Virus record (IMG/VR): IMGVR_UViG_2711768064_000002
From: a virus
Lineage: Duplodnaviria; Heunggongvirae; Uroviricota; Caudoviricetes
Strand: one strand, 5' to 3'
DNA length: 35,802 nucleotides
Positions 9,861 through 35,802 of the stretch are shown here, piece by piece. The translations under genes and the position numbers were made by a program. The notes below the pieces were generated by a model. That model was not told where the DNA came from. It did not search any database and saw only the letters and a program-made list of their open reading frames with translations. Position 1 is the stretch's first letter, and every line of letters begins with the position of its first letter.

Positions 9861-9875
9861 TTTCTTGGTTATTGA

Positions 9876-14918: not shown

Positions 14919-14921
14919 CCG

Positions 14922-16477: not shown

Positions 16478-16480
16478 CGC

Positions 16481-17259: not shown

Positions 17260-17273
17260 ACGGAGTAAATACC

Positions 17274-18112: not shown

Positions 18113-18257
18113 CCCGCAGACGAACGGCGATTTAAGTGCCGATATCCGGCAGCTTGAGAACGCGCTGGCACGCTGTGCCAGCCAGGTAAAAATGATTAAA
18201 CACTGTCAGGACGAAAACGATGCTCAAACCCGACAGCCTGCGCAGGGCGCTGACTGA
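17967..18257 (+). CDS. lysC: LysC (Rz1-like lipoprotein in +1 frame within lysB), 96 aa
   Basis: Embedded frame begins MKTRIFAAGMALTCLMLCAGC (lipobox LCAGC); 96 aa as in P2 lysC. Confidence 0.75.
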   Translation: MKTRIFAAGMALTCLMLCAGCTSVRPALTPVIVANACPKVSLCPMPGSDPQTNGDLSADIRQLENALARCASQVKMIKHCQDENDAQTRQPAQGAD

Positions 18258-18687: not shown

Positions 18688-19132
18688 GTTTAAGCGTTTT
18701 GAAGACCGGCTGACCGGACTGATTGAGTCGCTGTCACCGTCAGGGCGTCGGCGACTGAGTGCCGAACTGGCGAAACGTCTGCGGCAGAGTCAGCAGCGTC
18801 GGGTGATGGCTCAGAAAGCCCCGGACGGCACACCCTACGCGCCACGCCAGCAGCAGAGCGCCAGAAAAAAGACTGGTCGTGTTAAGCGAAAAATGTTTGC
18901 GAAACTTATCACCAGTCGTTTTTTGCATATCCGCGCCAGCCCGGAACAGGCATCAATGGAGTTTTACGGCGGGAAGTCGCCGAAAATTGCCAGTGTGCAT
19001 CAGTTCGGTCTGTCGGAAGAAAACCGAAAAGACGGTAAGAAAATTGATTATCCGGCGCGTCCTCTGCTCGGCTTTACCGGTGAGGATGTGCAGATGATTG
19101 AAGAGATTATCCTGGCTCACCTGAATCGTTAG
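18680..19132 (+). CDS. S: Tail completion protein S, 150 aa
   Basis: Size and position as P2 S. Confidence 0.88.
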   Translation: MNEFKRFEDRLTGLIESLSPSGRRRLSAELAKRLRQSQQRRVMAQKAPDGTPYAPRQQQSARKKTGRVKRKMFAKLITSRFLHIRASPEQASMEFYGGKSPKIASVHQFGLSEENRKDGKKIDYPARPLLGFTGEDVQMIEEIILAHLNR

Positions 19133-19207
19133 CTTTAATCATCTGAGAATATAAGATAGAAATCAATTGATTAGCATAATTTATTTTGAATTTTAATGTT
19201 AATAAAT

Positions 19208-19232
19208 AAAAGGCCAGTTATTGGCCTTTTAT
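19208..19232. terminator. Bidirectional rho-independent terminator
   Basis: aaaaggccagttattggcctttt: stem ggcca/tggcc flanked by A- and T-runs, between convergent S and the antisense cargo gene. Confidence 0.7.
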
Positions 19233-19234
19233 CA

Positions 19235-20308: not shown

Positions 20309-20394
20309 AATGGATTTTGTTGTCCCTTGTTGTTCTGTGCACCAGAAATCATGGTGTGATTTACTTCGAGATAGTACAGAATCATTATTATCGA
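20309..20394. promoter_or_regulatory. Late promoter region upstream of V (PV); likely also holds the cargo gene promoter
   Basis: Intergenic between divergent cargo gene and V; TGT-rich element ttgttgtcccttgttgttctgtgcacc. Inferred from P2 organisation. Confidence 0.45.
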
Positions 20395-21024
20395 ATGAAT
20401 GCACAATACAATGAAATTCTTCGCTTTATACGCAATATGATTCGCACTGGCATTATCGTCGAAACCGACCTTAATGCCGGTCGCTGCCGTGTGCAGACCG
20501 GCGGCATGTGCACCGACTGGCTTCAGTGGCTGACCCATCGCGCCGGGCGTTCGCGCACATGGTGGGCACCTTCCGTGGGGGAACAGGTGCTGATTCTGGC
20601 CGTGGGTGGTGAACTCGACACGGCGTTCGTTCTGCCGGGGATTTATTCCGGCGATAACCCCGCGCCGTCTGCGTCGGCGGATGCCCTGCATATCCGTTTC
20701 CCTGACGGGGCGGTGATTGAATATGAACCCGAAACCAGTGCACTCATGGTAAGCGGAATTAAAACGGCCAGCGTGACGGCTTCTGATTCTGTTACTGCCA
20801 CGGTGCCGGTGGTCATGGTGAAAGCATCAACCCGCATCACCCTGGACACACCGGAGGTGGTCTGCACCAACAGGCTGATTACCGGCACGCTGGAAGTGCA
20901 GAAGGGCGGGACGATGCGCGGCAACATTGAACACACCGGCGGTGAACTCTCATCAAACGGTAAGGTACTGCATACCCATAAACACCCCGGCGACAGCGGC
21001 GGCACAACCGGGAGTCCTCTATGA
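20395..21024 (+). CDS. V: Baseplate spike/assembly protein V, about 209 aa; ORF opens at 20317
   Basis: NMIRTGIIVETDLNAGRCRVQTGGMCTDWLQWL recognised as P2 V. Confidence 0.9.
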   Translation: MNAQYNEILRFIRNMIRTGIIVETDLNAGRCRVQTGGMCTDWLQWLTHRAGRSRTWWAPSVGEQVLILAVGGELDTAFVLPGIYSGDNPAPSASADALHIRFPDGAVIEYEPETSALMVSGIKTASVTASDSVTATVPVVMVKASTRITLDTPEVVCTNRLITGTLEVQKGGTMRGNIEHTGGELSSNGKVLHTHKHPGDSGGTTGSPL

Positions 21025-21368
21025 CAGCGCGTTATCTTGGAATGAATCGCAGTGATGGCCTGACTGTCACTGACCTTGAGCATATCAGCCAGAGTATCGG
21101 CGATATCCTGCGCACGCCGGTCGGCTCACGGGTGATGCGTCGTGATTACGGCTCATTGCTGGCGTCAATGATTGACCAGCCGCAGACCCCGGCGCTTGAG
21201 TTGCAGATTAAGGTCGCCTGTTACATGGCGGTGCTGAAATGGGAACCCCGCGTCACCCTGTCATCCGTCACCACTGAGCGCAGTTTTGACGGGCGAATGA
21301 CGGTCACGTTAACCGGCCAGCACAACGACACCGGCCAGCCACTTTCGTTAACCATCCCTGTGAGTTGA
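21021..21368 (+). CDS. W: Baseplate protein W, 115 aa
   Basis: Size and position as P2 W (GPW/gp25 family). Confidence 0.9.
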   Translation: MTARYLGMNRSDGLTVTDLEHISQSIGDILRTPVGSRVMRRDYGSLLASMIDQPQTPALELQIKVACYMAVLKWEPRVTLSSVTTERSFDGRMTVTLTGQHNDTGQPLSLTIPVS

Positions 21369-21372
21369 AACC

Positions 21373-22281
21373 ATGCCGATTATCGACCTGAACCAGCTAC
21401 CCGTACCGGATGTGGTCGAGGAGCTGGACTTTGAAACCATTCTTGCCGAACGCAAGGCGACACTGATTTCCCTTTACCCGGAAGACCAGCAGGAGGCGGT
21501 TGCCCGTACCCTGACGCTGGAATCCGAGCCTCTCGTCAAACTGCTGGAGGAAAATGCTTATCGTGAGCTTATCTGGCGTCAGCGTGTGAATGAGGCCGCA
21601 CGGGCGGTAATGCTGGCCTGTGCCGCCGGTAATGACCTTGATGTGATTGGTGCCAATTACAACACCACGCGCCTGATTATCACCCCGGCGGATGATTCGA
21701 CCATCCCGCCGACACCGGCAGTGATGGAATCTGACACCGATTATCGTCTGCGTATTCAGCAGGCGTTTGAAGGTTTAAGCGTCGCCGGGTCGGTGGGTGC
21801 CTATCAGTATCATGGCCGCAGTGCTGACGGGCGTGTCGCGGATATCTCTGTCACCAGTCCGTCTCCGGCCTGCGTCACCATCTCCGTGCTGTCACGTGAA
21901 AATAACGGTGTCGCATCCGAAGACCTGCTGGCTGTGGTGCGTAACGCCCTTAATGGCGAGGACGTCAGGCCGGTGGCCGACCGCGTGACCGTGCAGTCTG
22001 CCGCCATCGTTGAATACCAGATAAACGCCACGCTTTACCTTTATCCTGGTCCCGAAAGCGAACCCATCCGCGCTGCCGCCGTGAAAAAACTGGAAGCGTA
22101 TATCACGGCACAGCACCGGCTGGGGCGCGACATCCGACTGTCTGCCATTTATGCCGCTTTGCATGTGGAAGGCGTGCAGCGTGTCGAGCTGGCCGCACCA
22201 CTGGCCGACATTGTGCTCAACAGTACGCAGGCGTCTTTCTGCACCGAATACAGCGTCGTGACCGGAGGCTCGGATGAGTGA
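21373..22281 (+). CDS. J: Baseplate protein J, 302 aa
   Basis: Size and position as P2 J. Confidence 0.9.
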   Translation: MPIIDLNQLPVPDVVEELDFETILAERKATLISLYPEDQQEAVARTLTLESEPLVKLLEENAYRELIWRQRVNEAARAVMLACAAGNDLDVIGANYNTTRLIITPADDSTIPPTPAVMESDTDYRLRIQQAFEGLSVAGSVGAYQYHGRSADGRVADISVTSPSPACVTISVLSRENNGVASEDLLAVVRNALNGEDVRPVADRVTVQSAAIVEYQINATLYLYPGPESEPIRAAAVKKLEAYITAQHRLGRDIRLSAIYAALHVEGVQRVELAAPLADIVLNSTQASFCTEYSVVTGGSDE

Positions 22282-22804
22282 TTCGCGCCTGCTGCCGACC
22301 GGCTCATCAGCGCTTGAAATTGCTGCCGCGAAAGCCTGTGCGGAAATTGAAAAAACGCCGGTCAGTATTCGTGAACTGTGGAACCCGGACACCTGCCCGG
22401 CAAATCTGCTGCCGTGGCTGGCGTGGGCGTTTTCAGTCGACAGGTGGGATGAAAAGTGGCCGGAAGTGACAAAACGCGCCGTTATCCGCGATGCCTATTT
22501 CATCCACTGTCATAAAGGCACTATCGGCGCAATTCGGCGTGTGGTGGAGCCGCTCGGCTATCTCATCAACGTGACGGAGTGGTGGGAAAACAGTGACCCG
22601 CCAGGCACCTTCCGGCTTGATATTGGTGTACTGGAAAGTGGCATCACAGAGGCAATGTATCAGGAAATGGAACGGCTTATTGCTGATGCCAAACCTGCAA
22701 GCCGTCATCTTATTGGCCTGAACATTACCCGGGACATTCCCGGCTACCTGTTCGCCGGTGGTGTGGCTTACGACGGCGATGTAATTACGGTTTACCCCGG
22801 ATAA
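22274..22804 (+). CDS. I: Baseplate/tail protein I, 176 aa
   Basis: Size and position as P2 I. Confidence 0.9.
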   Translation: MSDSRLLPTGSSALEIAAAKACAEIEKTPVSIRELWNPDTCPANLLPWLAWAFSVDRWDEKWPEVTKRAVIRDAYFIHCHKGTIGAIRRVVEPLGYLINVTEWWENSDPPGTFRLDIGVLESGITEAMYQEMERLIADAKPASRHLIGLNITRDIPGYLFAGGVAYDGDVITVYPG

Positions 22805-22814
22805 GTGAGGAATA

Positions 22815-24860
22815 ATGAGCACAAAATTCAAAACCGTTATCACCACTGCCGGTGCAGCAAAGCTGGCAGCGGCAACCGCACCGGGAGGGCGGAAGGTCAA
22901 CATTACCACGATGGCCGTCGGGGATGGCGGTGGTAAATTGCCTGTCCCGGATGCCGGACAGACCGGGCTTATCCACGAAGTCTGGCGACATGCGCTGAAC
23001 AAAATCAGCCAGGACAAACGAAACAGTAATTATATTATCGCAGAGCTGGTTATTCCGCCGGAGGTGGGCGGCTTCTGGATGCGTGAGCTTGGCCTGTACG
23101 ATGATGCGGGAACGTTAATTGCCGTGGCGAACATGGCCGAAAGTTATAAGCCAGCTCTTGCCGAAGGCTCAGGGCGTTCGCAGACCTGTCGCATGGTCAT
23201 CATCGTCAGCAGTGTGGCCTCAGTGGAGCTGACCATTGACACCACAACGGTGATGGCGACGCAGGATTACGTTGATGACAAAATTGCAGAGCATGAACAG
23301 TCACGACGTCACCCGGACGCCTCGCTGACCGCAAAAGGTTTTACTCAGTTAAGCAATGCGACCAACAGCACGTCTGAAACACTGGCCGCAACGCCGAAAG
23401 CGGTTAAGGCCGCATATGACCTTGCTAACGAGAAATATACCGCACAGGACGCTACCACAGCGCGAAAAGGTCTTGTCCAGCTAAGTAGTGCGACCAACAG
23501 CATGTCTGAAACGCTCGCCGCAACACCAAAAGCCGTTAAGACGGTAATGGATGAAACGAACAAGAAAGCGCCATTAAACAGCCCTGCACTGACCGGAACG
23601 CCAACGACGCCAACTGCGCGACAGGGAACGAATAATACTCAGATCGCAAACACGGCTTTCGTTATGGCCGCGATTGCCGCCCTTGTAGACTCGTCGCCTG
23701 ACGCACTGAATACGCTGAACGAGCTGGCGGCGGCGCTGGGCAATGACCCGAATTTTGCTACCACCATGACTAATGCGCTTGCGGGTAAGCAACCGAAAGA
23801 TGCCACTTTGACGGCGCTGGCGGGGCTTGCTACTGCGGCAGACAGGTTTCCGTATTTTACGGGGAATGATGTTGCCAGCCTGGCGACCCTGACAAAAGTC
23901 GGGCGGGATATTCTGGCTAAATCGACCGTTGCCGCCGTTATCGAATATCTCGGTTTACAGGAAACGGTAAACAGGGCCGGGAACGCCGTGCAAAAAAATG
24001 GCGATACCTTGTCCGGCGGGCTTACTTTTGAAAACGACTCAATCCTTGCCTGGATTCGAAATACTGACTGGGCAAAGATTGGATTTAAAAATGATGCCGA
24101 CAGCGATACTGATTCATATATGTGGTTTGAAACAGGTGACAACGGCAATGAATATTTCAAATGGAGAAGTCGCCAGAGCACCACAACAAAAGACCTGATG
24201 AATCTTAAATGGGATGCTCTGTATGTTCTTGTTAAAGCCCTTTTCAGTAGTGAAGTAAAAATATCTACAGTCAATGCGCTGAGGATATTTAATTCATCTT
24301 TTGGTGCTATTTTTCGCCGTTCTGAAGAAAACCTGTATATCATTCCTACACGAGAAAATGAGGGTGAAAATGGAGATATTGGGCCATTAAGGCCATTCGG
24401 CATCAACTTAAGAACAGGAGTTGTGTCTGTTGGTAATGGTGCCAGGATTGATGGCGGGCTGGCACTTGGCACGAATAACGCGTTGGGTGGGAACTCTATT
24501 GTTCTTGGTGATAACGACACCGGATTTAAACAAAATGGCGATGGTAATCTGGATGTTTATGCTAATAACGTCCATGTTATGCGCTTTGTTTCCGGAAGCA
24601 TTCAAAGTAATAAGACCATAAATATTACGGGGCGTGTTAATCCCTCGGATTACGGTAACTTTGATTCCCGCTATGTGAGAGATATCAGACTTGGCACACG
24701 TGTTGTCCAGACCATGCAGAAAGGGGTGATGTATGAGAAAGCAGGGCACGTAATTACCGGGCTTGGTATTGTCGGTGAAGTCGATGGTGATGACCCCGCA
24801 GTATTCAGGCCAATACAAAAATACATCAATGGCACATGGTATAACGTCGCACAGGTGTAA
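22815..24860 (+). CDS. H: Tail fiber protein H, 681 aa
   Basis: Conserved N-terminus, internal repeats, AT-richer C-terminal region; position between I and G. Confidence 0.9.
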   Translation: MSTKFKTVITTAGAAKLAAATAPGGRKVNITTMAVGDGGGKLPVPDAGQTGLIHEVWRHALNKISQDKRNSNYIIAELVIPPEVGGFWMRELGLYDDAGTLIAVANMAESYKPALAEGSGRSQTCRMVIIVSSVASVELTIDTTTVMATQDYVDDKIAEHEQSRRHPDASLTAKGFTQLSNATNSTSETLAATPKAVKAAYDLANEKYTAQDATTARKGLVQLSSATNSMSETLAATPKAVKTVMDETNKKAPLNSPALTGTPTTPTARQGTNNTQIANTAFVMAAIAALVDSSPDALNTLNELAAALGNDPNFATTMTNALAGKQPKDATLTALAGLATAADRFPYFTGNDVASLATLTKVGRDILAKSTVAAVIEYLGLQETVNRAGNAVQKNGDTLSGGLTFENDSILAWIRNTDWAKIGFKNDADSDTDSYMWFETGDNGNEYFKWRSRQSTTTKDLMNLKWDALYVLVKALFSSEVKISTVNALRIFNSSFGAIFRRSEENLYIIPTRENEGENGDIGPLRPFGINLRTGVVSVGNGARIDGGLALGTNNALGGNSIVLGDNDTGFKQNGDGNLDVYANNVHVMRFVSGSIQSNKTINITGRVNPSDYGNFDSRYVRDIRLGTRVVQTMQKGVMYEKAGHVITGLGIVGEVDGDDPAVFRPIQKYINGTWYNVAQV

Positions 24861-24863
24861 TTT

Positions 24864-25391
24864 ATGCAGCATTTAAAAAATATTACTGCGGGTAATCCAA
24901 AAACTGTTGCCCAATATCAACTGACAAAAAATTTTGATGTTATCTGGTTATGGTCCGAAGAGGGAAAAAACTGGTATGAGGAAGTAAGTAATTTTCAGGA
25001 AGACACGATAAAGATTGTTTACGACGAGAATAATATAATTTTCGGCATCACCAGAGATGCTTCAACGCTTAACCCTGAAGGTTTCAGCGTTGTCGAGGTT
25101 CCTGATATTACCTCCAACCGACGTGCTGATGACTCAGGTAAATGGATGTTTAAGGATGGTGCCGTGATTAAGCGGATTTATACGGCAGATGAACAGGAGC
25201 AACAGGCAGAATCACAAAAGGCAGCTTTACTTTCCGAAGCTGAATCCGTGATTTTGCCGCTGGAACGCGCTGTCAGGCTGAATATGGCGACGGATGAGGA
25301 ACGCAGCCGACTGGAAGCATGGGAACGCTACAGCGTTCTGGTCAGTCGTGTGGATCCTGCAAATCCCGAATGGCCGGAAATGCCGCAATAA
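24864..25391 (+). CDS. G: Tail fiber assembly chaperone G, 175 aa
   Basis: Follows H; size as P2 G. Confidence 0.88.
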
Positions 25392-25668
25392 GTTGTATGA
25401 TCTCTGGTGTGAGCTTACATATCTATAGCACAGAGTAAAGCCTAATCTGACAGTCCGCTATGTGCCAATAGCAGACATCCACACAATTATGTAAAATAGG
25501 CTAGTGAGTCAGCATTCATGTAGTTCAGATCATCTATAGCTGAAATCACGATCGCTTAACAGTGATTCACTCATAACTGCTAGCGAGCAATGTTCTTGTT
25601 TGAACCTCAAGTTGAAACCACAAAATCGAAAGGTTAAATAATCGATTATCCAAATAGAAGGCAATTCA

Positions 25669-27108
25669 ATGGGAAATCACGATTTTATTAAATATATTAT
25701 ATTATTTGGCTTGTCTGGGATAATGTTGGCTATGCTAGTGCTCTTTATTTCCTCTGTAGCATATTATTTTTTCACCCATAATAAAGGAGTTCTTCAGTAT
25801 ATAATTAAAACTATTTCCATAGGCCTTGTAACTATTCCAGTCGCAATAATACTAATCGTTGCACTCGTCCATTATGTTGTCTGGCAAAAAGGGATTTCAA
25901 CGGCATGGCGTTTTATATTCCACTCGACTAAAACAACAACCGTGAATGATATTGCTAATGCTGAATCAGAAGATGTTATTGTTCACCTTGTTCATGGAAC
26001 ATTCGAGACGAATGCATCTTGGACACAACCTGAGTCAAAAATGTGCAAATCAATTAACTCAAGGAATCCCAATATTGGTATATCTCGATTTAAATGGGAT
26101 GGCAAAAACTCTGCATCCTCTCGTAAACAAGCGGCATATCAATTAGGAATGCATATTGATAACTCTCCTGCAAAATACAATTATATTATTGCACATAGCC
26201 ATGGGGCAGCTATTGTAAGAGAAATGTCTTATTTACGAAGTGATATTGCAAAAAAAATTCAAGGCGTATGTCTTTTGTCACCACCGTTCATCTTTCGACG
26301 TAGGATAAAAAGAACGTCAGGTGCTTTAATTAATCTTATTGATATTAGCGGAACTTTGGCCATTCAATTGTTACTTGCAGTATTTTTTGTACCTTTGAAT
26401 CTATATAATATTAATTATGCAGCAGTAATTTTTTTTGTTTCAATATTTGCAGAAATTATAATCTCCAAAAAATATAAAAAAGAATTTTTGCAGGAAGTTG
26501 AGAGTGGCGAGCACTGTGAAGCGGTTGATTTTAGGAATGTTGAAATTTATCACGCAATTGGTGATGAAGCCGATTCAGGCCTAAGATTTGTAAGTTCACT
26601 TCACGAAGGATGTTTTGCAATTCTTTCCCAGCTAAAAAAAGCTCAAGTAAGTCATAAAAAGCTAACACATTGGTCAGCAGTTTTAAGCTACCTATTTTAT
26701 ATTTCCATGAGTGTATTAATATGGTTCTTCTATCCTGAAGAAAAATCATGGATTATAGTATTATTAGTAAGCTTTGTATTAACTTCTATTTCTCACATTT
26801 GGCAAAGGTTGAAACCATCAAAGGATGTTCCTCATGTTTTACTTATTGCAGCAATACCAGTTGCGATTTTTTCATTTTGGTTGGCTGTAGCTAAGGCCAT
26901 AGCTTATGGAGATTTGCGATTAATATTTTGCCCGGAAGTTTTTATTGCATCATCTGAAACTCCAGCTGGAGATCATAAAGTTATTAAATTTGCTCCACAG
27001 AATGATGGTATATTAATACACTCAACACACTCGCATCCGGAGGCTATAATTAATGTTTCTGAATGGTTATATTGCTCTGAGAATAAAAGGGTAAATGGTG
27101 AATCATAG
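25669..27108 (+). CDS. AT-rich cargo polytopic membrane protein with serine-hydrolase-like motifs, 479 aa
   Basis: N-terminal TM helices, then VIVHLVHGTFE (HG oxyanion-like) and IIAHSHGAAIV (GxSxG-like elbow), further TM segments, C-terminal ILIHSTHSH. Occupies the Z/fun position between G and FI. Confidence 0.85.
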   Translation: MGNHDFIKYIILFGLSGIMLAMLVLFISSVAYYFFTHNKGVLQYIIKTISIGLVTIPVAIILIVALVHYVVWQKGISTAWRFIFHSTKTTTVNDIANAESEDVIVHLVHGTFETNASWTQPESKMCKSINSRNPNIGISRFKWDGKNSASSRKQAAYQLGMHIDNSPAKYNYIIAHSHGAAIVREMSYLRSDIAKKIQGVCLLSPPFIFRRRIKRTSGALINLIDISGTLAIQLLLAVFFVPLNLYNINYAAVIFFVSIFAEIIISKKYKKEFLQEVESGEHCEAVDFRNVEIYHAIGDEADSGLRFVSSLHEGCFAILSQLKKAQVSHKKLTHWSAVLSYLFYISMSVLIWFFYPEEKSWIIVLLVSFVLTSISHIWQRLKPSKDVPHVLLIAAIPVAIFSFWLAVAKAIAYGDLRLIFCPEVFIASSETPAGDHKVIKFAPQNDGILIHSTHSHPEAIINVSEWLYCSENKRVNGES

Positions 27109-27441
27109 ATTAATATAACCACCATAAATTAATTTGTAATATACTTCCCTGCTAAATTCGCAGGGGAGTATAAAAATATACTAGCTCAGTGGAGTCTTGT
27201 GCTGAGTTAGTACATGTTAACAAGATATTTATTCACCACTAAATAATTAGCTAGAACAATAAGAATAATTTTGGGCAGTAAAGACAGGATGTAAACTACA
27301 CTTATTCCAGTATGTTGGTTATCGTAGTTATATATGATGAGCTCTAAAGTCCGCTTCTCGCTCAAAGCAGACTGTCAGATTTGATAGCGTTTTGGCTATG
27401 TAAATTGTCAGTCGGGAAATAAGTGAGTACAAATCATGACA

Positions 27442-27470
27442 GGCGGGCGGATTGTCCGCCTTTTCTTTAT
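27442..27470 (+). terminator. Rho-independent terminator downstream of cargo gene
   Basis: ggcgga-ttg-tccgcc hairpin followed by ttttcttt. Confidence 0.6.
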
Positions 27471-27565
27471 CTGTTGTTTCATCCACTGACCAGCCAGGTC
27501 AAATAGCGTCTCATGCTCTGCACAACAGAAAATACCACTCACCCATTAACCACGGAGTTAAACGG
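27471..27565 (+). promoter_or_regulatory. Late promoter region upstream of FI (PF)
   Basis: tgttg ... caaca inverted element (27471..27525) upstream of FI RBS ggag; inferred from P2 late promoter architecture. Confidence 0.45.
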
Positions 27566-28756
27566 ATGAGTGACTATCATCACGGCGTGCAGGTGCTGGA
27601 GATTAACGACGGCACCCGCGTCATTTCCACCGTATCCACTGCCATTGTCGGCATGGTCTGCACGGCCAGCGATGCGGATGCGGAAACCTTCCCCCTCAAT
27701 AAACCGGTGCTGATTACCAATGTGCAGAGTGCAATTGCAAAGGCCGGTAAAAAAGGCACGCTGGCGGCATCGTTGCAGGCCATCGCCGACCAGTCAAAAC
27801 CGGTCACCGTTGTTGTGCGTGTGGAAGACGGCACCGGCGACGACGAGGAAACGAAACTCGCGCAGACCGTTTCCAATATCATCGGCACCACCGACGAAAA
27901 CGGTCAGTACACCGGACTGAAAGCCCTGCTGGCGGCGGAGTCGGTAACTGGTGTTAAACCGCGTATTCTCGGCGTGCCGGGACTGGACACCAAAGAGGTG
28001 GCTGTTGCACTGGCATCAGTCTGTCAGAAGCTGCGCGCTTTCGGGTATATCAGCGCATGGGGCTGTAAAACCATTTCCGAGGTGAAAGCCTACCGCCAGA
28101 ATTTCAGCCAGCGTGAACTGATGGTTATCTGGCCGGATTTCCTCGCATGGGATACGGTCACCAGTACCACCGCCACCGCGTATGCCACCGCCCGTGCGCT
28201 GGGTCTGCGTGCCAGAATCGACCAGGAGCAGGGCTGGCATAAAACGCTGTCCAACGTCGGGGTAAACGGTGTTACCGGCATCAGTGCCTCTGTATTCTGG
28301 GATTTGCAGGAGTCCGGCACCGATGCTGACCTGTTGAATGAGTCAGGTGTCACAACGCTGATTCGCCGCGACGGTTTCCGCTTCTGGGGTAACCGTACCT
28401 GCTCTGATGACCCGCTGTTCCTCTTTGAAAACTACACCCGCACCGCGCAGGTGCTGGCCGATACGATGGCTGAGGCGCACATGTGGGCGGTGGACAAGCC
28501 CATCACCGCAACGCTGATTCGCGACATCGTTGACGGCATCAATGCCAAATTCCGTGAGCTGAAAACAAACGGCTATATCGTGGATGGCTCATGCTGGTTC
28601 AGCGAAGAATCCAACGATGCGGAAACCCTCAAGGCCGGAAAACTGTATATCGACTACGACTATACACCGGTGCCTCCTCTCGAAAACCTGACCCTGCGCC
28701 AGCGTATTACCGATAAATACCTGGCAAATCTGGTCACCTCGGTTAACAGCAATTAA
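27566..28756 (+). CDS. FI: Tail sheath protein FI, 396 aa; ORF opens at 27452
   Basis: Start MSDYHHGVQVLEIN with RBS; 396 aa as P2 FI. Confidence 0.92.
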   Translation: MSDYHHGVQVLEINDGTRVISTVSTAIVGMVCTASDADAETFPLNKPVLITNVQSAIAKAGKKGTLAASLQAIADQSKPVTVVVRVEDGTGDDEETKLAQTVSNIIGTTDENGQYTGLKALLAAESVTGVKPRILGVPGLDTKEVAVALASVCQKLRAFGYISAWGCKTISEVKAYRQNFSQRELMVIWPDFLAWDTVTSTTATAYATARALGLRARIDQEQGWHKTLSNVGVNGVTGISASVFWDLQESGTDADLLNESGVTTLIRRDGFRFWGNRTCSDDPLFLFENYTRTAQVLADTMAEAHMWAVDKPITATLIRDIVDGINAKFRELKTNGYIVDGSCWFSEESNDAETLKAGKLYIDYDYTPVPPLENLTLRQRITDKYLANLVTSVNSN

Positions 28757-28768
28757 GGAGCCTGACCG

Positions 28769-29287
28769 ATGGCAATGCCGCGCAAACTCAAGTTAATGAA
28801 CGTCTTTCTGAACGGCTACAGCTATCAGGGCGTTGCAAAGTCCGTCACGCTGCCAAAACTGACCCGTAAGCTCGAAAACTATCGCGGTGCGGGGATGAAC
28901 GGCAGCGCACCGGTAGACCTCGGTCTTGATGACGATGCGCTGTCAATGGAGTGGTCGCTCGGGGGCTTCCCGGATTCGGTTATCTGGGAGCTTTACGCCG
29001 CAACCGGTGTGGATGCCGTACCGATTCGTTTTGCTGGCTCTTACCAGCGCGACGATACCGGCGAAACGGTGGCCGTCGAGGTGGTCATGCGTGGCCGTCA
29101 GAAAGAAATCGACACCGGCGAGGGTAAACAGGGAGAAGACACCGAGTCGAAAATCTCCGTGGTCTGCACCTATTTCCGGCTGACGATGGACGGTAAGGAG
29201 CTGGTCGAAATCGACACCATTAACATGATTGAGAAGGTGAACGGCGTCGACCGGCTGGAGCAACACCGCCGCAATATCGGCCTGTGA
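28769..29287 (+). CDS. FII: Tail tube protein FII, 172 aa
   Basis: Size and position as P2 FII. Confidence 0.92.
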   Translation: MAMPRKLKLMNVFLNGYSYQGVAKSVTLPKLTRKLENYRGAGMNGSAPVDLGLDDDALSMEWSLGGFPDSVIWELYAATGVDAVPIRFAGSYQRDDTGETVAVEVVMRGRQKEIDTGEGKQGEDTESKISVVCTYFRLTMDGKELVEIDTINMIEKVNGVDRLEQHRRNIGL

Positions 29288-29343
29288 TTTTCATCCGGTC
29301 AGCCAGGCTGACCGGTTAACCCCGATTCATAAGTGAGAAAACC

Positions 29344-29619
29344 ATGAACAAAGAAAATGTGATTACCCTGGACAATCCGGTCAAGCGTGGTGAGCAGGTT
29401 ATCGAACAGGTCACGCTGATGAAACCCAATGCCGGGACGCTGCGCGGTGTCAGTCTGGCAGCGGTCGCGAACTCCGAAGTCGATGCACTGATTAAGGTGC
29501 TGCCGCGCATGACAGCACCGATGCTGACCGAGCAGGAGGTCGCCGCGCTGGAACTGCCTGACCTTGTGGCGCTGGCCGGTAAGGTGGTCGGTTTTTTGTC
29601 GCCGAACTCGGTGCAGTGA
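29344..29619 (+). CDS. E: Tail assembly chaperone E, 91 aa
   Basis: Size and position as P2 E; ends just after a T-run slippery site. Confidence 0.88.
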   Translation: MNKENVITLDNPVKRGEQVIEQVTLMKPNAGTLRGVSLAAVANSEVDALIKVLPRMTAPMLTEQEVAALELPDLVALAGKVVGFLSPNSVQ

Positions 29620-29771
29620 CGTTTCCGAAAAATCTGTCGGTCGATGACCTGATGGCGGATGTGGCTGTGATATTTCACTGGCCGCCATCAGAACTGTACC
29701 CCATGAGCCTGACCGAACTCATCACATGGCGCGAAAAGGCGCTCTGGCGAAGCGGAAACACGAATGAGTAA
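29344..29771 (+). CDS. E': E+E' (-1 programmed frameshift product); shift at about 29592..29598
   Basis: Slippery run ggttttttg at the E 3' end; -1 frame stays open from there to taa at 29769..29771, overlapping the T start. Mirrors the tail chaperone frameshift of P2. Confidence 0.65.
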
Positions 29772-32211
29772 CAATGTAAAATTACAGGTATTGCTCAGGG
29801 CTGTTGACCAGGCATCCCGCCCGTTTAAATCCATCCGCACAGCGAGTAAGTCGCTGTCGGGGGATATCCGGGAAACACAAAAATCACTGCGCGAGCTGAA
29901 CGGTCACGCATCCCGTATTGAGGGATTCCGCAAGACCAGTGCACAGCTCGCCGTGACTGGTCATGCACTTGAAAAGGCACGGCAGGAGGCCGAAGCCCTT
30001 GCCACACAGTTTAAAAATACCGAACGACCGACCCGTGCTCAGGCGAAAGTGCTGGAATCCGCAAAGCGAGCGGCGGAGGACTTACAGGCGAAATATAACC
30101 GCCTGACGGATTCCGTTAAACGCCAGCAGCGGGAACTGGCCGCTGTGGGAATTAATACCCGCAATCTTGCACATGATGAGCAGGGGCTGAAAAACCGTAT
30201 CAGTGAAACCACCGCACAGCTTAACCGTCAGCGCGACGCACTGGCGCGTGTCAGTGCACAACAGGCAAAACTTAACGCAGTAAAACAGCGTTATCAGGCC
30301 GGAAAGGAACTGGCCGGAAATATGGCCTCAGTGGGCGCTGCCGGTGTGGGGATTGCTGCTGCGGGAACGATGGCCGGTGTTAAGCTGCTGATGCCCGGTT
30401 ATGAGTTTGCGCAGAAAAACTCAGAATTGCAGGCTGTGCTCGGTGTGGCAAAAGACTCCGCCGAAATGGCCGCATTACGCAAACAGGCGCGCCAGCTCGG
30501 CGACAATACCGCCGCCTCGGCAGATGATGCAGCCGGTGCGCAGATTATTATTGCGAAAGCCGGTGGGGATGTTGATGCCATTCAGGCGGCAACGCCGGTC
30601 ACGCTGAACATGGCGCTGGCGAACCGCCGCACGATGGAAGAAAACGCCGCCCTGCTGGTGGGGATGAAATCCGCCTTTCAGCTTTCAAACGATAAGGTCG
30701 CTCATATCGGGGATGTTCTCTCCATGACGATGAACAAAACCGCCGCCGATTTTGACGGCATGAGCGATGCGCTGACCTATGCCGCACCTGTGGCAAAAAA
30801 TGCCGGTGTCAGCATTGAAGAAACCGCCGCAATGGTCGGGGCGCTGCATGATGCAAAAATCACAGGCTCAATGGCGGGGACGGGAAGCCGTGCCGTGTTA
30901 AGCCGCCTGCAGGCACCGACGGGAAAAGCGTGGGATGCACTGAAAGAGCTTGGTGTGAAAACCTCAGACAGCAAGGGAAACACCCGACCAGTATTTACCA
31001 TTCTGAAAGAAATGCAGGCCAGTTTTGAGAAAAACCGGCTCGGTACTGCCCAGCAGGCCGAATACATGAAAACCATTTTCGGGGAGGAGGCCAGCTCAGC
31101 CGCCGCTGTGCTGATGACTGCCGCGTCAACCGGAAAGCTGGACAAACTGACCGCTGCGTTTAAAGCCTCAGACGGGAAGACCGCCGAGCTGGTAAATATC
31201 ATGCAGGACAACCTCGGCGGTGACTTTAAGGAGTTTCAGTCCGCTTATGAGGCGGTGGGGACTGACCTGTTTGACCAGCAGGAAGGCGCGCTGCGTAAGC
31301 TCACGCAGACGGCCACAAAGTATGTGTTAAAACTTGACGGCTGGATACAGAAAAACAAATCACTGGCGTCAACCATCGGCCTCATTGCCGGTGGCGCACT
31401 GGCGCTTACTGGCATCATCGGTGCCATTGGCCTTGTAGCCTGGCCGGTTATCACTGGCATCAATGCCATTATCGCGGCAGCAGGCGCAATGGGGGCAATC
31501 TTCACGACGGTTAGCAGTGCTGTTATGACGGCCATCGGGGCGATTAGCTGGCCGGTTGTGGCCGTGGTGGCCGCCATTGTCGCCGGGGCGTTGCTTATCC
31601 GTAAATACTGGGAGCCTGTCAGCGCATTCTTTGGCGGTGTGGTTGAAGGGCTGAAAGCGGCATTTGCGCCGGTGGGGGAACTGTTCACGCCACTGAAGCC
31701 GGTGTTTGACTGGCTGGGTGAAAAGTTACAGGCCGCGTGGCAGTGGTTTAAAAACCTGATTGCCCCGGTCAAAGCCACCCAGGACACCCTGAACCGTTGC
31801 CGTGACACGGGCGTCATGTTCGGGCAGGCACTGGCTGACGCGCTGATGCTGCCGCTTAATGCGTTCAACAAACTGCGCAGTGGCATTGACTGGGTACTGG
31901 AAAAACTCGGTGTTATCAACAAAGAGTCAGACACACTTGACCAGACCGCCGCCAGAACTCAAGCCGCCACGTATGGCAGCGGTGGTTATATTCCGGCGAC
32001 CAGCTCTTATGCAGGCTATCAGGCTTATCAGCCGGTCACGGCACCGGCTGGCCGCTCTTATGTAGACCAGAGTAAAAACGAATATCACATCAACCTGACG
32101 GGTGGTACTGTGCCGGGGACACAGCTTGACCGCCAGTTACAGGATGCGCTTGAAAAATACGAGCGGGATAAACGTGCGCGCGCCCGTGCCAGCATGATGC
32201 ATGACGGTTAA
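29764..32211 (+). CDS. T: Tail tape measure protein T, 815 aa
   Basis: Long Ala/Gly-rich protein with coiled-coil N-terminus and hydrophobic central segment; P2 T position. Confidence 0.92.
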   Translation: MSNNVKLQVLLRAVDQASRPFKSIRTASKSLSGDIRETQKSLRELNGHASRIEGFRKTSAQLAVTGHALEKARQEAEALATQFKNTERPTRAQAKVLESAKRAAEDLQAKYNRLTDSVKRQQRELAAVGINTRNLAHDEQGLKNRISETTAQLNRQRDALARVSAQQAKLNAVKQRYQAGKELAGNMASVGAAGVGIAAAGTMAGVKLLMPGYEFAQKNSELQAVLGVAKDSAEMAALRKQARQLGDNTAASADDAAGAQIIIAKAGGDVDAIQAATPVTLNMALANRRTMEENAALLVGMKSAFQLSNDKVAHIGDVLSMTMNKTAADFDGMSDALTYAAPVAKNAGVSIEETAAMVGALHDAKITGSMAGTGSRAVLSRLQAPTGKAWDALKELGVKTSDSKGNTRPVFTILKEMQASFEKNRLGTAQQAEYMKTIFGEEASSAAAVLMTAASTGKLDKLTAAFKASDGKTAELVNIMQDNLGGDFKEFQSAYEAVGTDLFDQQEGALRKLTQTATKYVLKLDGWIQKNKSLASTIGLIAGGALALTGIIGAIGLVAWPVITGINAIIAAAGAMGAIFTTVSSAVMTAIGAISWPVVAVVAAIVAGALLIRKYWEPVSAFFGGVVEGLKAAFAPVGELFTPLKPVFDWLGEKLQAAWQWFKNLIAPVKATQDTLNRCRDTGVMFGQALADALMLPLNAFNKLRSGIDWVLEKLGVINKESDTLDQTAARTQAATYGSGGYIPATSSYAGYQAYQPVTAPAGRSYVDQSKNEYHINLTGGTVPGTQLDRQLQDALEKYERDKRARARASMMHDG

Positions 32212-32225
32212 GGAGGTGACGAAAA

Positions 32226-32705
32226 ATGATGCTCGCGTTAGGTATGTTTGTTTTTATGCGCCAGACGCTGCCACACCAGACCATGCAGCGTGAATCAGAT
32301 TATCGCTGGCCGTCAAATTCCCGTATCGGTAAACGGGATGCCTTTCAGTTTCTCGGCGTTGGCGAGGAAAACATCACGCTTGCCGGTGTGCTTTATCCCG
32401 AGCTGACCGGCGGAAAGCTGACGATGACCACGCTCAGGCTGATGGCAGAGGAAGGTCGGGCGTGGCCGTTGCTGGATGGCACCGGCATGATTTACGGCAT
32501 GTATGTCATCAGCAGGGTGAGTGAAACAGGGAGTATTTTCTTTGCAGACGGCACACCCCGAAAAATTGATTTTACGCTGTCGCTCACCCGCGTTGATGAA
32601 TCACTGGCCGCGCTTTATGGCGATATCGGTAAACAGGCGGAATCGCTCATCGGTAAGGCTGGCAGTATGGCGACTAAATTCACGGGTATGACGGGGGCGG
32701 GATAA
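32226..32705 (+). CDS. U: Tail protein U, 159 aa
   Basis: Size and position as P2 U. Confidence 0.9.
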   Translation: MMLALGMFVFMRQTLPHQTMQRESDYRWPSNSRIGKRDAFQFLGVGEENITLAGVLYPELTGGKLTMTTLRLMAEEGRAWPLLDGTGMIYGMYVISRVSETGSIFFADGTPRKIDFTLSLTRVDESLAALYGDIGKQAESLIGKAGSMATKFTGMTGAG

Positions 32706-33868
32706 TGCTGGATGCGCTGACATTTGATGCAGGCAGTACGCTGACACCGGATTACATGCTGATGCTCGACAGCAGGGATATTACCGGCAATATCAGCGAC
32801 CGTCTGATGAGCATGACCCTGACGGATAACCGGGGCTTTGAGGCTGACCAGCTTGATATTGAACTGAACGATGCCGACGGGCAGGTCGGGCTGCCGGTTC
32901 GTGGCGCTGTCCTGACGGTGTATATCGGCTGGAAAGGTTTTGCCCTGGTATGCAAAGGGAAATTTACCGTTGATGAGGTTGAACACCGGGGCGCGCCGGA
33001 TGTGGTTACCATCCGCGCCCGGAGTGCAGATTTTCGCGGGACGCTCAATTCCCGCCGGGAAGGCTCATGGCATGACACCACGCTCGGTGCGATTGTTGAG
33101 GCGATAGCCTCCCGTAACAGGCTGGAAGCCAGTGTCGCGCCGTCACTGGCCGGAATTAAAATCCCGCACATCGACCAGTCGCAGGAGTCTGATGCAAAAT
33201 TCCTGACCCGCCTTGCTGAACGCAACGGCGGTGAGGTGTCGGTAAAAATGGGAAAATTGTTGTTTCTCAAAGCGGGGCAGGGGGTGACGGCCAGTGGTAA
33301 AAAAATCCCGCAGATTACCATCACCCGCAGCGACGGCGACCGTCATCATTTTGCGATTGCTGACCGTGGAGCCTACACCGGCGTAACGGCAAAGTGGTTA
33401 CACACCAAAGACCCGAAGCCGCAAAAGCAGAAGGTAAAACTGAAACGCAAAAAGAAAGAGAAACACCTGCGCGCACTGGAGCACCCGAAAGCGAAACCGG
33501 TCAGGCAGAAGAAAGCGCCAAAAGTACCGGAAGCGCGCGAAGGTGAATACATGGCCGGTGAGGCTGACAACGTTTTTGCCCTGACCACGGTATATGCCAC
33601 GAAAGCACAGGCCATGCGTGCTGCTCAGGCGAAGTGGGATAAACTGCAACGGGGCGTTGCGGAGTTCTCCATCATCCTGGCTACCGGTCGTGCAGATATT
33701 TACACGGAAACACCGGTCAGAGTGTCAGGCTTTAAGCGCGTCATAGACGAGCAGGACTGGACAATCACTAAGGTGACACATTTTCTGAATAATAGCGGCT
33801 TCACGACGTCCTTGGAGCTTGAGGTCAGGCTTTCTGATGTGGAGTACGAAACAGAAGATGATGAGTGA
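32705..33868 (+). CDS. D: Tail protein D (late control gene D), 387 aa
   Basis: Size and position as P2 D. Confidence 0.9.
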   Translation: MLDALTFDAGSTLTPDYMLMLDSRDITGNISDRLMSMTLTDNRGFEADQLDIELNDADGQVGLPVRGAVLTVYIGWKGFALVCKGKFTVDEVEHRGAPDVVTIRARSADFRGTLNSRREGSWHDTTLGAIVEAIASRNRLEASVAPSLAGIKIPHIDQSQESDAKFLTRLAERNGGEVSVKMGKLLFLKAGQGVTASGKKIPQITITRSDGDRHHFAIADRGAYTGVTAKWLHTKDPKPQKQKVKLKRKKKEKHLRALEHPKAKPVRQKKAPKVPEAREGEYMAGEADNVFALTTVYATKAQAMRAAQAKWDKLQRGVAEFSIILATGRADIYTETPVRVSGFKRVIDEQDWTITKVTHFLNNSGFTTSLELEVRLSDVEYETEDDE

Positions 33869-33949
33869 TGTTTTGTTTTTATCTGTTTGTTTTATAAGGA
33901 TAAATTAACTAAAATGGCACCATTAACAAAACCGGAAGAGGTGCTCGCG

Positions 33950-34168
33950 ATGTTTCATTGTCCTTTATGCCAGCATGCCGCACATGCGCGTACAAGCCGC
34001 TATATCACTGACACGACAAAAGAGCGTTATCACCAGTGCCAGAACGTGAATTGCAGCGCCACGTTCATCACTTATGAGTCGGTACAGCGATACATCGTGA
34101 AGCCGGGAGAAGTCCACGCCGTGAGGCCGCACCCGTTGCCGTCAGGGCAGCAAATTATGTGGATGTAA
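33950..34168 (+). CDS. ogr: Ogr late transcription activator (zinc finger), 72 aa; ORF opens at 33887
   Basis: MFHCPLCQHAAHARTSRYITDTTKERYHQCQNVNCSATF: C4 zinc-finger recognised as P2 Ogr. Confidence 0.9.
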   Translation: MFHCPLCQHAAHARTSRYITDTTKERYHQCQNVNCSATFITYESVQRYIVKPGEVHAVRPHPLPSGQQIMWM

Positions 34169-34180
34169 TTACAAACAGAA

Positions 34181-34205
34181 AGCCCCTCAGTCGAGGGGCT
34201 TTTTT
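34181..34205 (+). terminator. Rho-independent terminator after ogr
   Basis: agcccctc-agtc-gaggggct followed by ttttt. Confidence 0.85.
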
Positions 34206-34268
34206 GTCGATGTGGTCAATGTGTGGACGTGACCAGAAATAAATCCTTTTATTTCAATTTGTTGTACG

Positions 34269-34296
34269 TAAAAAATAAGCCCGTGTAAGGGAGATT
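34269..34296. repeat. attR core (taaaaaataAgcccgtgtaagggagatt)
   Basis: Direct repeat of attL; coincides with the 3' end of the sRNA gene. Confidence 0.85.
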
Positions 34297-34356
34297 ACAC
34301 AGGCTAAGGAGGTGGTTCCTGGTACAGCTAGCATTTTATGGGTTATGTTTTTCAGC
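34270..34356 (-). ncRNA. cyaR: CyaR (RyeE) small regulatory RNA, 87 nt
   Basis: Minus strand reads gctgaaaaacataacccataaaatgctagctgtaccaggaaccacctccttagcctgtgtaatctcccttacacgggcttatttttt, matching CyaR as I recall it, including the terminator hairpin and U-tail. Confidence 0.8.
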
Positions 34357-34440
34357 GAAACGGATGATAACCTTAATAAATGCAGCTGTATGTGATCGGT
34401 TTCTAAGAATTTTCCATCCGGGAAAAATAATCGAAATTAA

Positions 34441-35802
34441 TCACTTACCGTGGGGATTACGCGTGGTTTCCCCGGAGAAATTACGCATCAGCAGCGCGTA
34501 ATTGAGCTCAAGATCCTGCGGGACCGGGAGCCACACAGTATAACCATCGCCTGGTGCTATCGGCATAGCTTCGCCTTTGGCGTTTTCCATGTGCTCAAGG
34601 GTAAAATTAATGTTGCCTTGCGGCGTCATCAGCTCAAGGCTGTCGCCAACGGAGAATTTATTTTTCACCGCTACCGCCGCGAGGTCCCCCTTGCGCTCAC
34701 CGGTAAACTCACCAACAAACTGCTGGCGGTCAGAAACTGAATAACCGTATTCGTAGTTCTGATAATCGTCGTGAGTATGACGACGCAGGAAACCTTCGGT
34801 ATAGCCACGATGCGCCAGACCTTCCAGAGTTTCCAGCAGGCTGGTATCGAACGGTTTTCCCGCAGCGGCGTCATCGATAGCTTTGCGGTAAACCTGTGCG
34901 GTGCGTGCACAATAGTAGAAAGATTTGGTACGACCTTCGATTTTCAGCGAATGCACGCCCATTTTGGTCAGGCGTTCTACATGGGCGATGGCGCGCAGAT
35001 CTTTCGAGTTCATGATGTAAGTGCCGTGCTCATCTTCAAACGCGGTCATATACTCGCCCGGACGCTGGGCCTCTTCGATCATAAACACTTTGTCGGTTGG
35101 TGCGCCGATACCCAGCGTCGGCTCAACATTTTGCACCGGAATCGGCTCGTACTTGTGTACGATGTTGCCAACATCATCTTCTTTCCCTTCCTGGACGTTG
35201 TACTCCCAGCGGCAGGCGTTGGTGCAGGTGCCCTGGTTCGGGTCGCGCTTGTTGATATAGCCAGAGAGCAGGCAGCGACCGGAGTAGGCCATGCACAGCG
35301 CGCCGTGAACGAAGATCTCGATCTCCATATCCGGCACCTGATTGCGGATCTCTTCAATCTCTTCCAGCGACAGCTCGCGAGAGAGGATCACGCGGGTCAG
35401 GCCCATTTGCTGCCAGAATTTCACCGTCGCCCAGTTCACGGCGTTAGCCTGCACCGAAAGGTGGATCGGCATTTCAGGGAAGTGCTCACGCACCAGCATA
35501 ATCAGCCCTGGATCGGACATAATCAGCGCATCCGGCCCCATTTCCACCACCGGTTTCAGGTCACGGATAAAGGTTTTCAGCTTGGCGTTGTGCGGTGCAA
35601 TGTTGACCACGACATAAAACTTTTTCCCCAGCGCGTGGGCTTCATTGATGCCGAGCTGAAGATTTTCGTGGTTGAATTCGTTGTTGCGCACACGCAGGGA
35701 ATAACGCGGCTGGCCCGCATAAACAGCATCTGCGCCATAAGCGAAAGCGTAACGCATATTTTTCAGCGTTCCCGCCGGGGAAAGGAGTTCCGGTTTAAAC
35801 AT
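34441..35802 (-). CDS. yegQ: Peptidase U32-family protein (YegQ/TrhP-like), 453 aa
   Basis: Full-length ORF starting at the window edge (MFKPELLSPAGTLKNMRYAFAYGADAVYAGQPRYSLR); GC-normal host-like composition; recalled as neighbour of cyaR in E. coli. Confidence 0.75.
   Translation of the reverse strand: MFKPELLSPAGTLKNMRYAFAYGADAVYAGQPRYSLRVRNNEFNHENLQLGINEAHALGKKFYVVVNIAPHNAKLKTFIRDLKPVVEMGPDALIMSDPGLIMLVREHFPEMPIHLSVQANAVNWATVKFWQQMGLTRVILSRELSLEEIEEIRNQVPDMEIEIFVHGALCMAYSGRCLLSGYINKRDPNQGTCTNACRWEYNVQEGKEDDVGNIVHKYEPIPVQNVEPTLGIGAPTDKVFMIEEAQRPGEYMTAFEDEHGTYIMNSKDLRAIAHVERLTKMGVHSLKIEGRTKSFYYCARTAQVYRKAIDDAAAGKPFDTSLLETLEGLAHRGYTEGFLRRHTHDDYQNYEYGYSVSDRQQFVGEFTGERKGDLAAVAVKNKFSVGDSLELMTPQGNINFTLEHMENAKGEAMPIAPGDGYTVWLPVPQDLELNYALLMRNFSGETTRNPHGK

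Follow-up and report, generated by a model that had tools for sequence, protein, structure and literature searches.

A P2 prophage integrated at the 3′ end of the cyaR small RNA gene in an Escherichia coli chromosomal segment

The 35,802-nt stretch of DNA analysed here (IMG/VR record IMGVR_UViG_2711768064_000002, referred to as the window) holds a phage genome that ends at a small RNA gene, which raises the question of what was inserted at this locus, by which route, and whether the RNA gene came through the event intact. The best explanation, in which we place very high confidence, is that an apparently complete P2 phage is integrated at the 3′ end of cyaR and that cyaR was regenerated with an intact terminator. 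The arrangement of P2 at cyaR is already known and is not new: an insertion site named 'cyaR RNA' is tabulated in the genome paper of E. coli W (PMC3032704, Table 2), with Wphi2 (P2) as its occupant in strain W, P2*B in strain B and ogr-D′ in K-12. The window itself is an E. coli chromosomal segment with the order yegR, P2 prophage, cyaR, yegQ/trhP (Table 1). We take this host site to be locI, the preferred, classical E. coli site of P2; Barreiro and Haggard-Ljungquist reportedly equated the P2 attachment site locI with this site in 1992, in a paper whose title mentions the K-12 remnant.

Table 1. Position, strand and basis of assignment of the features in the 35,802-nt window.
Feature	Position	Strand	Basis
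yegR, host gene, left flank	1..318	+	Annotated yegR in matching E. coli genomes; G at position 43
Host arm left of attL, decayed P2 P arm (Int arm-type site region)	416..476		Alignment, shuffles
attL core AAAAAATAGGCCCGTGTAAGGGAGATT, G at 485	477..503	+	Core search; G-type core in 25/5426 E. coli genomes
P2 prophage body, int end to ogr end	504..34269		Collinear blocks and full-length essential proteins vs NC_001895
Cox-binding region of attL, P′ side	520..593		Homology to P2 feature 24399-24472
int, P2 tyrosine integrase (337 aa)	583..1596	-	99.4% over 337/337; Pfam Int_N + Phage_integrase
Int arm-type sites, P′ arm (CTGTGGACACTGTGTGGACAC...)	591..617		P2 feature 24470-24496; sequence match
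C, immunity repressor	1712..2011	-	100% identical to P2 C
cox, excision directionality factor and repressor of Pc	2126..2401	+	100% identical to P2 Cox
Cargo island replacing P2 orf91-tin-old, between gpA and gpQ	6416..9963		No P2 homology
Cargo island at P2 orf30 position	19138..20430		ORF 19235-20404 (-, 389 aa)
Cargo island at P2 Z/fun position	25477..27349		ORF 25669-27108 (+, 479 aa)
ogr, late-gene activator	33950..34168	+	100% over 72/72 vs P2 Ogr; Pfam Ogr_Delta
ogr / F-operon terminator hairpin	34179..34202		P2 feature 24265-24288; terminator scan
Int arm-type sites, P arm	34207..34234		P2 feature 24293-24320; sequence identical
IHF site of attP, now within attR	34238..34271		P2 feature 24324-24357; one base differs from P2
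attR core = last 27 nt of cyaR = P2 attP core	34270..34296	+	Sequence match, P2 record
cyaR (CyaR/RyeE sRNA gene, 87 nt)	34270..34356	-	Rfam 100.7 bits; 87/87 vs K-12 b4438
CyaR intrinsic terminator hairpin, 11-bp stem + 6-nt loop	34278..34305	-	Rfam match, folding, terminator scan
CRP-like site TTAGAAACCGATCACA	34391..34406	-	Pattern match, -50..-35 of cyaR; candidate
yegQ / trhP, host gene, right flank	34441..35802	-	Annotation of matching genomes

The cyaR gene and the repeated core

CyaR_RyeE (RF00112) was the sole Rfam family detected in the window, with a minus-strand match at 34273-34358 that covers the full model (1-85/85) and scores well above the gathering score of 47 (E=3.5e-19). 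All 87 nt of the gene are identical to the annotated K-12 cyaR (b4438). The preliminary description had recognized a CyaR-like RNA at 34269-34356, with the terminator-proximal 27 nt of this minus-strand gene as the attR core; the database comparison bears out the identity of both, and the location holds apart from a low end that was one base off. In the MFE fold the loop of hairpin 2 is AACCAC, and the RNA shows three hairpins, a C-rich anti-SD loop and a Rho-independent terminator followed by a U-tail. In the terminator stem 34305-34295 pairs with 34288-34278, where 34278 is the 3′ partner in the closing A-U pair, and the tail that follows is UAUUUUUU at 34277-34270. With the attR-side sequence the terminator thus still folds, as an 11-bp stem, and the whole RNA reaches -20.0 kcal/mol. 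As in MG1655, the gene lies just downstream of, and co-oriented with, yegQ/trhP. A candidate CRP-like site is found upstream, and CyaR is known to be cAMP-CRP dependent (PMC3333887); a sigma-70 scan found no consensus promoter at cyaR, as expected of an activator-dependent promoter. The cyaR of the window is the CyaR/RyeE sRNA gene, and its sequence and fold are unchanged in the lysogen.

A 27-nt core, AAAAAATAAGCCCGTGTAAGGGAGATT, is exactly the last 27 nt of cyaR; it takes in the U-tail, the loop and the entire 3′ half of the terminator stem, along with the two final bases of its 5′ half. It is present without mismatch at attR and with a single mismatch at attL (G485 vs A34278), with about 33.8 kb between the two copies. 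The same 27 nt are annotated as the attP core in the P2 record (24356-24382), which attR matches at 27/27 and attL at 26/27 positions. No further copy with up to three mismatches was found in the window, and none is expected from 100 shuffles. Short two-copy repeats can arise by chance, and the core could in principle be such a coincidence, or a match within a repeat family, unrelated to recombination. This explanation is ruled out by the shuffles, by the fact that the repeats exactly bracket the P2 genome and match its annotated attP core, and by the single copy of the core in empty sites. A second, degenerate core at 405-426 is only weakly supported, as 24 of 5000 shuffles reach its score and a further 10-mer of the core turns up by chance at 4276, and is not claimed. 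There is no tRNA or tmRNA gene present, and a tRNA-type att site is therefore excluded.

A synthetic empty site, composed of the left flank, the core and the right flank, matches many E. coli chromosomes in one piece at 100% over 608 nt. In the six empty loci that were read, yegR is followed by about 330 nt and then by yegQ, and such sites carry one copy of the core. The alignment to an unoccupied cyaR locus that had been suggested as a check is thereby provided, and integration of the prophage into the 3′ end of cyaR is supported by P2 lying between the cores, by the attP core being the same 27 nt and by the existence of empty sites. Of 5426 complete E. coli genomes, 812 (~15%) contain the junction yegR-attL-int, so that P2 at this site is a common lysogen type. 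As a separate observation, strain B7A has the attL end at yegR while its ogr end adjoins pflB with a different core, which suggests an inversion between two P2-like prophages. E. coli genomes annotated with PGAP do not list cyaR at the site, and because of this omission most records give no sign that the P2 att core overlaps an sRNA gene.

When attL, attR, the attP of P2 and two empty attB sites are aligned together, they show the classical relationship BOB′ x POP′ -> BOP′ + POB′. P2 Int is a heterobivalent tyrosine recombinase that works with IHF, and excision also needs Cox (PMC3448106, PMC3936717). On the best explanation, integration occurred by Int/IHF-mediated site-specific recombination between the phage attP and the core site of the host. 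Its products are an attL composed of host arm, core and P′ arm with int, and an attR composed of ogr, P arm, core and the rest of cyaR. The final 27 nt of cyaR are duplicated exactly in attP, and the gene is therefore regenerated unchanged, at its 87 nt and with an intact terminator.

Integration might nevertheless alter CyaR function despite the preserved sequence, because phage DNA now follows the U-tract and read-through would run antisense into the P arm and ogr. The bases directly 3′ of the U-tail indeed differ, with ACGUAC... in the lysogen vs AUGCAU... at the empty site, and the CyaR terminator was reported to be leaky, read-through amounting to 41% when a delta-hfq strain was tested in a plasmid double-terminator assay (PMC9765468). 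However, the terminator hairpin and the entire U-tract of CyaR are inside the core and identical, and the ogr / F-operon hairpin about 75 nt downstream, which has a terminator score for the minus strand as well, would stop read-through. A functional change of this kind is quite unlikely, and regeneration of an unaltered cyaR remains our preferred reading.

The P2 prophage between the cores and its cargo

P2 (NC_001895/AF063097) was the best match of the window in the phage collection, with 97.8%. Five collinear blocks (97.9%, 98.0%, 96.6%, 85.9% and 96.6% vs NC_001895) cover all P2 modules. The essential set (Q, P, O, N, M, L, X, Y, K, R, S, V, W, J, I, H, G, FI, FII, E, T, U, D, ogr, int, C, cox, B and A) aligned at full length with 91-100% protein identity, except for the C-terminal part of the tail fibre protein H, which has diverged to ~52%. 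Identity to the P2 proteins is 100% for C, Cox and Ogr, 99.4% for Int and, in most cases, 98-100% for the structural proteins. The attP core and the Int arm, IHF and Cox sites annotated in P2 are conserved position for position at both ends of the prophage; the Cox region was placed in this way via the 97.9% block that aligns 476-6415 with 24355-30294 of P2. The consensus of P2-type Int arm sites is tgTGGaCa (PMC3448106), and P2-type arm sites, an IHF site and Cox boxes surround the 27-bp core; the tyrosine integrase is of the P2 type, too.

Decayed P2-type elements are common at this site, as illustrated by the K-12 remnant and by strain 1218KP with its IS3 and large deletions, so that the element in the window could likewise be a defective or cryptic derivative of P2 rather than a functional integrated phage. 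Against this stand the full-length essential genes, among which the diverged C-terminus of H is a normal host-range swap, the intact att sites, Int arm sites, IHF site and Cox sites, and the restriction of the differences from P2 to known non-essential moron positions. We consider a defective element improbable. The element between the cores is apparently a complete P2 prophage that may be able to excise and to form particles. It carries the immunity, int, cox and ogr of reference P2, and three moron islands are exchanged.

Only three positions, all known non-essential (moron) positions, differ from P2: gpA-gpQ, orf30 and Z/fun. The island between gpA and gpQ has a low GC content (~31%) and carries a 753-aa ORF (7599-9860, +) without a match in Pfam, PADLOC, PHROG, NCBIfam or PDB; the N-terminal part of the protein may be a PD-(D/E)XK nuclease domain. 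Its homologues form 46 clusters, and all named ones are 'hypothetical'; among complete E. coli genomes it was found in only one other, in a decayed prophage at the same site. The gpA-gpQ position is a published defence hot-spot of P2 (PMC9122126). For the 389-aa ORF at the orf30 position, phrog_9373, of unknown function, was the sole match, and none was found in Pfam, PADLOC, NCBIfam or PDB. Likewise, the 479-aa ORF at the Z/fun position had no match in Pfam, PADLOC, PHROGs, NCBIfam or PDB. The exact cargo combination of the window was present in none of the 5426 complete E. coli genomes, the best coverage being 76%. The most promising lead in the window is this set of three uncharacterised cargo genes, which occupy known or likely defence hot-spots and may outrank the att site in interest.

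The G/A mismatch and the position of strand exchange

The single mismatch between the cores had been taken as an indication of which copy completes the sRNA, and it had been expected to be visible in the terminator stem. The latter is correct, as 34278 belongs to the closing pair. The former is not: attR is contiguous with cyaR and completes the gene by contiguity alone, so that the mismatch is not what marks the completing copy. The G allele corresponds to a C at this base of the stem, where it creates an A.C mismatch and leaves a 10-bp stem, with -18.7 vs -20.0 kcal/mol.

The origin of the mismatch can be approached through its distribution in the population. We searched 5426 E. coli genomes with a 41-nt probe, built such that the variant base falls within each of its 28-nt seeds. 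The G-type core was found in 25 genomes, at a single place in each, which comprise 20 empty sites and five attL sites. Four of the 20 G-type empty sites were checked directly, and the host flanks of the window (476 + 1500 nt) match three of these with 0 mismatches and the fourth with one. In the two A-type empty sites that were read, the sole difference from the window is at position 43 of yegR. A G-type attR was found in none of the 5426 genomes, with a 28-nt seed (core plus one flanking T) that would miss an attR preceded by another base, and no phage record carries a G-type attP, the A type being present in 12 records that include P2 and its relatives. Three lysogens with a G-type attL all have an A-type attR. 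One of these three, VTB96777v, harbors a P2 relative with a different P-arm-proximal sequence and therefore represents an independent integration. The yegR SNP at position 43 was considered as a haplotype tag for the G-type attB and was dropped, since it is not strictly linked to the core allele: the lysogens 600468, PI7 and 19M19 combine G43 with an A-type attL. We therefore relied on the distribution of the G allele over attB, attL, attR and attP.

The simplest reading of these population data is that attL has kept a rare G allele of the host and that the A in attR is the base of the phage. Alternatively, attL might have acquired G485 by random point mutation once the phage had integrated, and the base would then be uninformative on the host allele or the crossover. 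In favour of this, only one base is concerned, no selection acts on attL as gene sequence, and lysogens that share the yegR haplotype and the early region have A at this position. However, the same G occurs in the 20 unoccupied sites, including those whose flanks match the window, and in the attL of lysogens with different P2 variants, whereas no attR was found to carry it and phage attP lacks it. A later mutation is thus very improbable. Moreover, the G in empty sites requires linkage of attL and attB at position 9, and the same conclusion on the crossover would therefore follow even if the G had arisen in attL.

With the attL G as a host allele that is absent from phage attP, it follows that the A closing the CyaR terminator stem came from the phage. 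From this natural G/A marker we infer that strand exchange took place on the cyaR-proximal side of core position 9 and that at least the last 9 nt of the cyaR of the lysogen (34270-34278) are phage DNA; position 9 would thus have remained with the host arm in attL and have been supplied by the phage in attR. The core contains an imperfect inverted repeat, AATAAGCCC / GGGAGATT, that flanks GTGTAA. Therefore, the exchange is probably to be placed in or near GTGTAA, and the phage-derived stretch probably comprises the last ~13-19 nt of cyaR. The closing pair of the stem would have contained a C in this host lineage, which the U of the phage replaced. If the marker is read in this way, a slightly weaker terminator allele of the host, with its A.C closing pair, was replaced by the phage copy.

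Related elements and the history of the site

The prophage shares the 27-nt core and the site between yegR and cyaR-yegQ with P2 at locI, Wphi2, P2*B and the K-12 element ogr-D′/PR-X, and it has the same orientation as these P2-type elements, with the ogr end next to cyaR. From reference P2 it differs in the moron cargo at gpA-gpQ, orf30 and Z/fun and in an attL with the rare host G. In the MG1655 record, the cryptic prophage PR-X (2167183-2167811) overlaps the last 18 nt of cyaR, and ogrK and the D′ pseudogene yegZ adjoin. The order in this remnant is the left ~18 nt of the attL core fused to D′, followed by ogrK, the P arm, the attR core and cyaR.

Phage 186 (tRNA-Ile), HP1 (tRNA-Leu) and Fels-2/SopE-phi (ssrA) likewise have cores overlapping the 3′ ends of structured RNA genes. 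Many islands that target tRNA genes have int beside the tRNA; in the window, int lies at the prophage end far from the RNA gene. As in tRNA/tmRNA-targeting elements, the copy of the core brought by the element regenerates the RNA gene (PMC3448106), here with cyaR at 87/87. Unlike in those elements, the target is the terminator of an Hfq-dependent sRNA and not a tRNA-like structure. sRNA gene regions serve as att sites elsewhere, too: the 3′ region of the rybB ncRNA gene is a recurrent att site of P2-type elements in E. coli W, B and Crooks, and the sdsR locus is a prophage att site in Salmonella, although both the sRNA and the core differ from those described here. Integration at the 3′ end of an RNA gene with restoration of the gene, which the preliminary description had called a known phage strategy, is thus indeed documented, for tRNA/tmRNA genes as well as sRNA loci. 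The sites of P2-type integrases were described as mostly 'between other genes' (PMC3448106). Judging from this wording, the RNA-gene nature of the site is under-emphasised in the phage literature, and it is not new.

The host arm to the left of attL preserves an older layer of this history. It aligns locally with the P2 P arm at a score of 38, a value reached by none of 2000 shuffles (mean 13.9, maximum 26), and the sequence common to both arms is TCGATGTGGTCAATG...GTGACCAG. This decayed P arm is present in the window and in all 'empty' Escherichia and Shigella sites, and it is better kept in Escherichia sp. MOD1-EC7003 (score 44); the arms of Kluyvera and Enterobacter score at background. By this relic, the 'empty' sites of Escherichia are fossil attR copies left by older P2-like integrations. 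The exact core is found beside cyaR in Escherichia and Shigella as well as in 13 Kluyvera and 2 Enterobacter hormaechei species representatives, and P2-type P arms adjoin cyaR in K. intermedia and E. ruysiae, among others.

It is tempting to go further and to speculate that P2 lysogeny overwrites the 3′ end of the CyaR terminator, which in rare C-allele hosts would amount to a terminator-strengthening allele conversion, that in view of the fossil P arm the present CyaR end of E. coli may itself be phage-derived, and that regulatory consequences might follow. Such consequences may be an altered termination efficiency or Hfq loading, or a CRP-driven read-through antisense to ogr that would link carbon status to the late-gene control of the prophage. 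Taken as a whole, this extended scenario seems unlikely.

The main use of the analysis lies in annotation: a classic arrangement has been read correctly, and its discovery value is little. The natural single-base marker points, from population data, to a phage origin of the terminal 3′ bases of CyaR in lysogens; this reading and the fossil attR add a little to the known picture. Since the 'unoccupied' Escherichia sites are fossils, the 3′ end of this sRNA has long been a phage landing pad, across the genera Escherichia, Shigella and Kluyvera.

Cargo islands and the tail-fibre region

Relative to P2, the prophage carries three cargo islands, and their positions are listed with the other features discussed here in the table below. 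The 753-aa protein encoded between gpA and gpQ had no match in Pfam, PADLOC, PHROG, NCBIfam or PDB, and a PD-(D/E)XK-like motif was spotted by eye at its N-terminus. Its homologues form 46 clusters, in which all named proteins are annotated as "hypothetical"; these named homologues belong to Enterobacterales, Vibrio, Aeromonas, Shewanella and Pseudomonas. Among 5426 complete E. coli genomes this cargo was found in just one. E. coli 1218KP (locus L041) harbors a P2-type prophage with heavy deletions at the identical cyaR site, with an IS3 located between yegR and int. This prophage keeps the 753-aa ORF, and the DNA of the island is 99.9% identical to that of the window. For the other two cargo proteins, the 389-aa protein matched solely phrog_9373, a family of unknown function, with nothing in Pfam, PADLOC, NCBIfam or PDB, and the 479-aa protein yielded zero matches across all libraries searched (Pfam, PADLOC, PHROG, NCBIfam, PDB).

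The C-terminal part of tail-fibre protein H shares only ~52% protein identity with P2, and for the assembly protein G the value is 91%. From this comparison, the diverged H C-terminus together with G looks like a host-range module swap. The H gene also contains direct repeats of 75% identity, spaced by 132 nt.

Features of the prophage and its attachment locus (window positions)
Feature	Position	Strand	Remarks
Possible second core	405-426		10-nt core match AAGGGAGATT at 417-426
P-arm relic in host arm left of core	416-476		decayed copy of P2 P arm (Int arm-type site)
Cargo island, low GC (~31%)	6416-9963		takes the place of P2 orf91-tin-old; gpA-gpQ defence hot-spot
Cargo ORF, 753 aa	7599-9860	+	within gpA-gpQ island
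Cargo island	19138-20430		P2 orf30 position
Cargo ORF, 389 aa	19235-20404	-	orf30 position
Direct repeat pair within tail-fibre H gene	23333-23567		2 x 103 nt
Diverged H C-terminus and G region	24240-25476		comparison with P2
Cargo island	25477-27349		P2 Z/fun position
Cargo ORF, 479 aa	25669-27108	+	Z/fun position
ogr/F-operon terminator hairpin	34179-34202		scores as terminator on - strand too

Annotation, terminator and allele of cyaR

At this locus, the cyaR ncRNA feature is not listed in PGAP-annotated E. coli genomes (RefSeq loci L003-L019); the curated MG1655 record alone lists it. Therefore, the overlap between the att core and the RNA gene is hidden in most annotations. A leaky CyaR terminator is on record (PMC9765468). 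In the terminator scan, the ogr/F-operon hairpin that also scores on the minus strand was located downstream of the CyaR terminator, at a distance of ~75 nt. Potentially, this hairpin could halt cyaR read-through ahead of its antisense entry into ogr.

A rare cyaR allele, which reads as the G-type core on the plus strand, is carried by 20 unoccupied E. coli genomes, among them those of loci L003-L006 (positions 1501-1534 in each). In this allele C replaces U in the pair that closes the terminator stem. The 5' side shows no compensating change, and the stem thus contains an A.C mismatch.

Fossil and present use of the cyaR end

The P-arm relic left of the core was observed not just in the window but also in comparison loci L003-L008, L025, L026, L037 and L040, including "unoccupied" E. 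coli and Shigella sites. It is most intact in Escherichia sp. MOD1-EC7003 and was not found in the Kluyvera and Enterobacter arms. Since the decayed arm is present even at unoccupied sites, the empty cyaR loci of Escherichia are fossil attR sites, left by an earlier P2-like prophage. Directly left of the relic, AAGGGAGATT is identical to the final 10 nt of the core. Positions 405-426 may represent a second core of the fossil, attL-type and degenerate, but this is weakly supported: the score of this stretch was reached in 24 of 5000 shuffles, and a different 10-mer from the core is present by chance at position 4276.

In E. coli B7A (L010, L016), the int end of a P2-type prophage lies at yegR with the G-type attL, but the ogr end adjoins pflB-focA, where the core sequence differs. 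This suggests a chromosomal inversion via recombination between two P2-like prophages. In Kluyvera intermedia, in E. ruysiae and in two genomes with E. coli in their titles (L021, L035, L036, L039), P2-type P arms directly adjoin the cyaR core, and E. ruysiae has both attL and attR. Judged from these junctions, P2-like phages use one and the same sRNA end, that of cyaR, in hosts of more than one genus.
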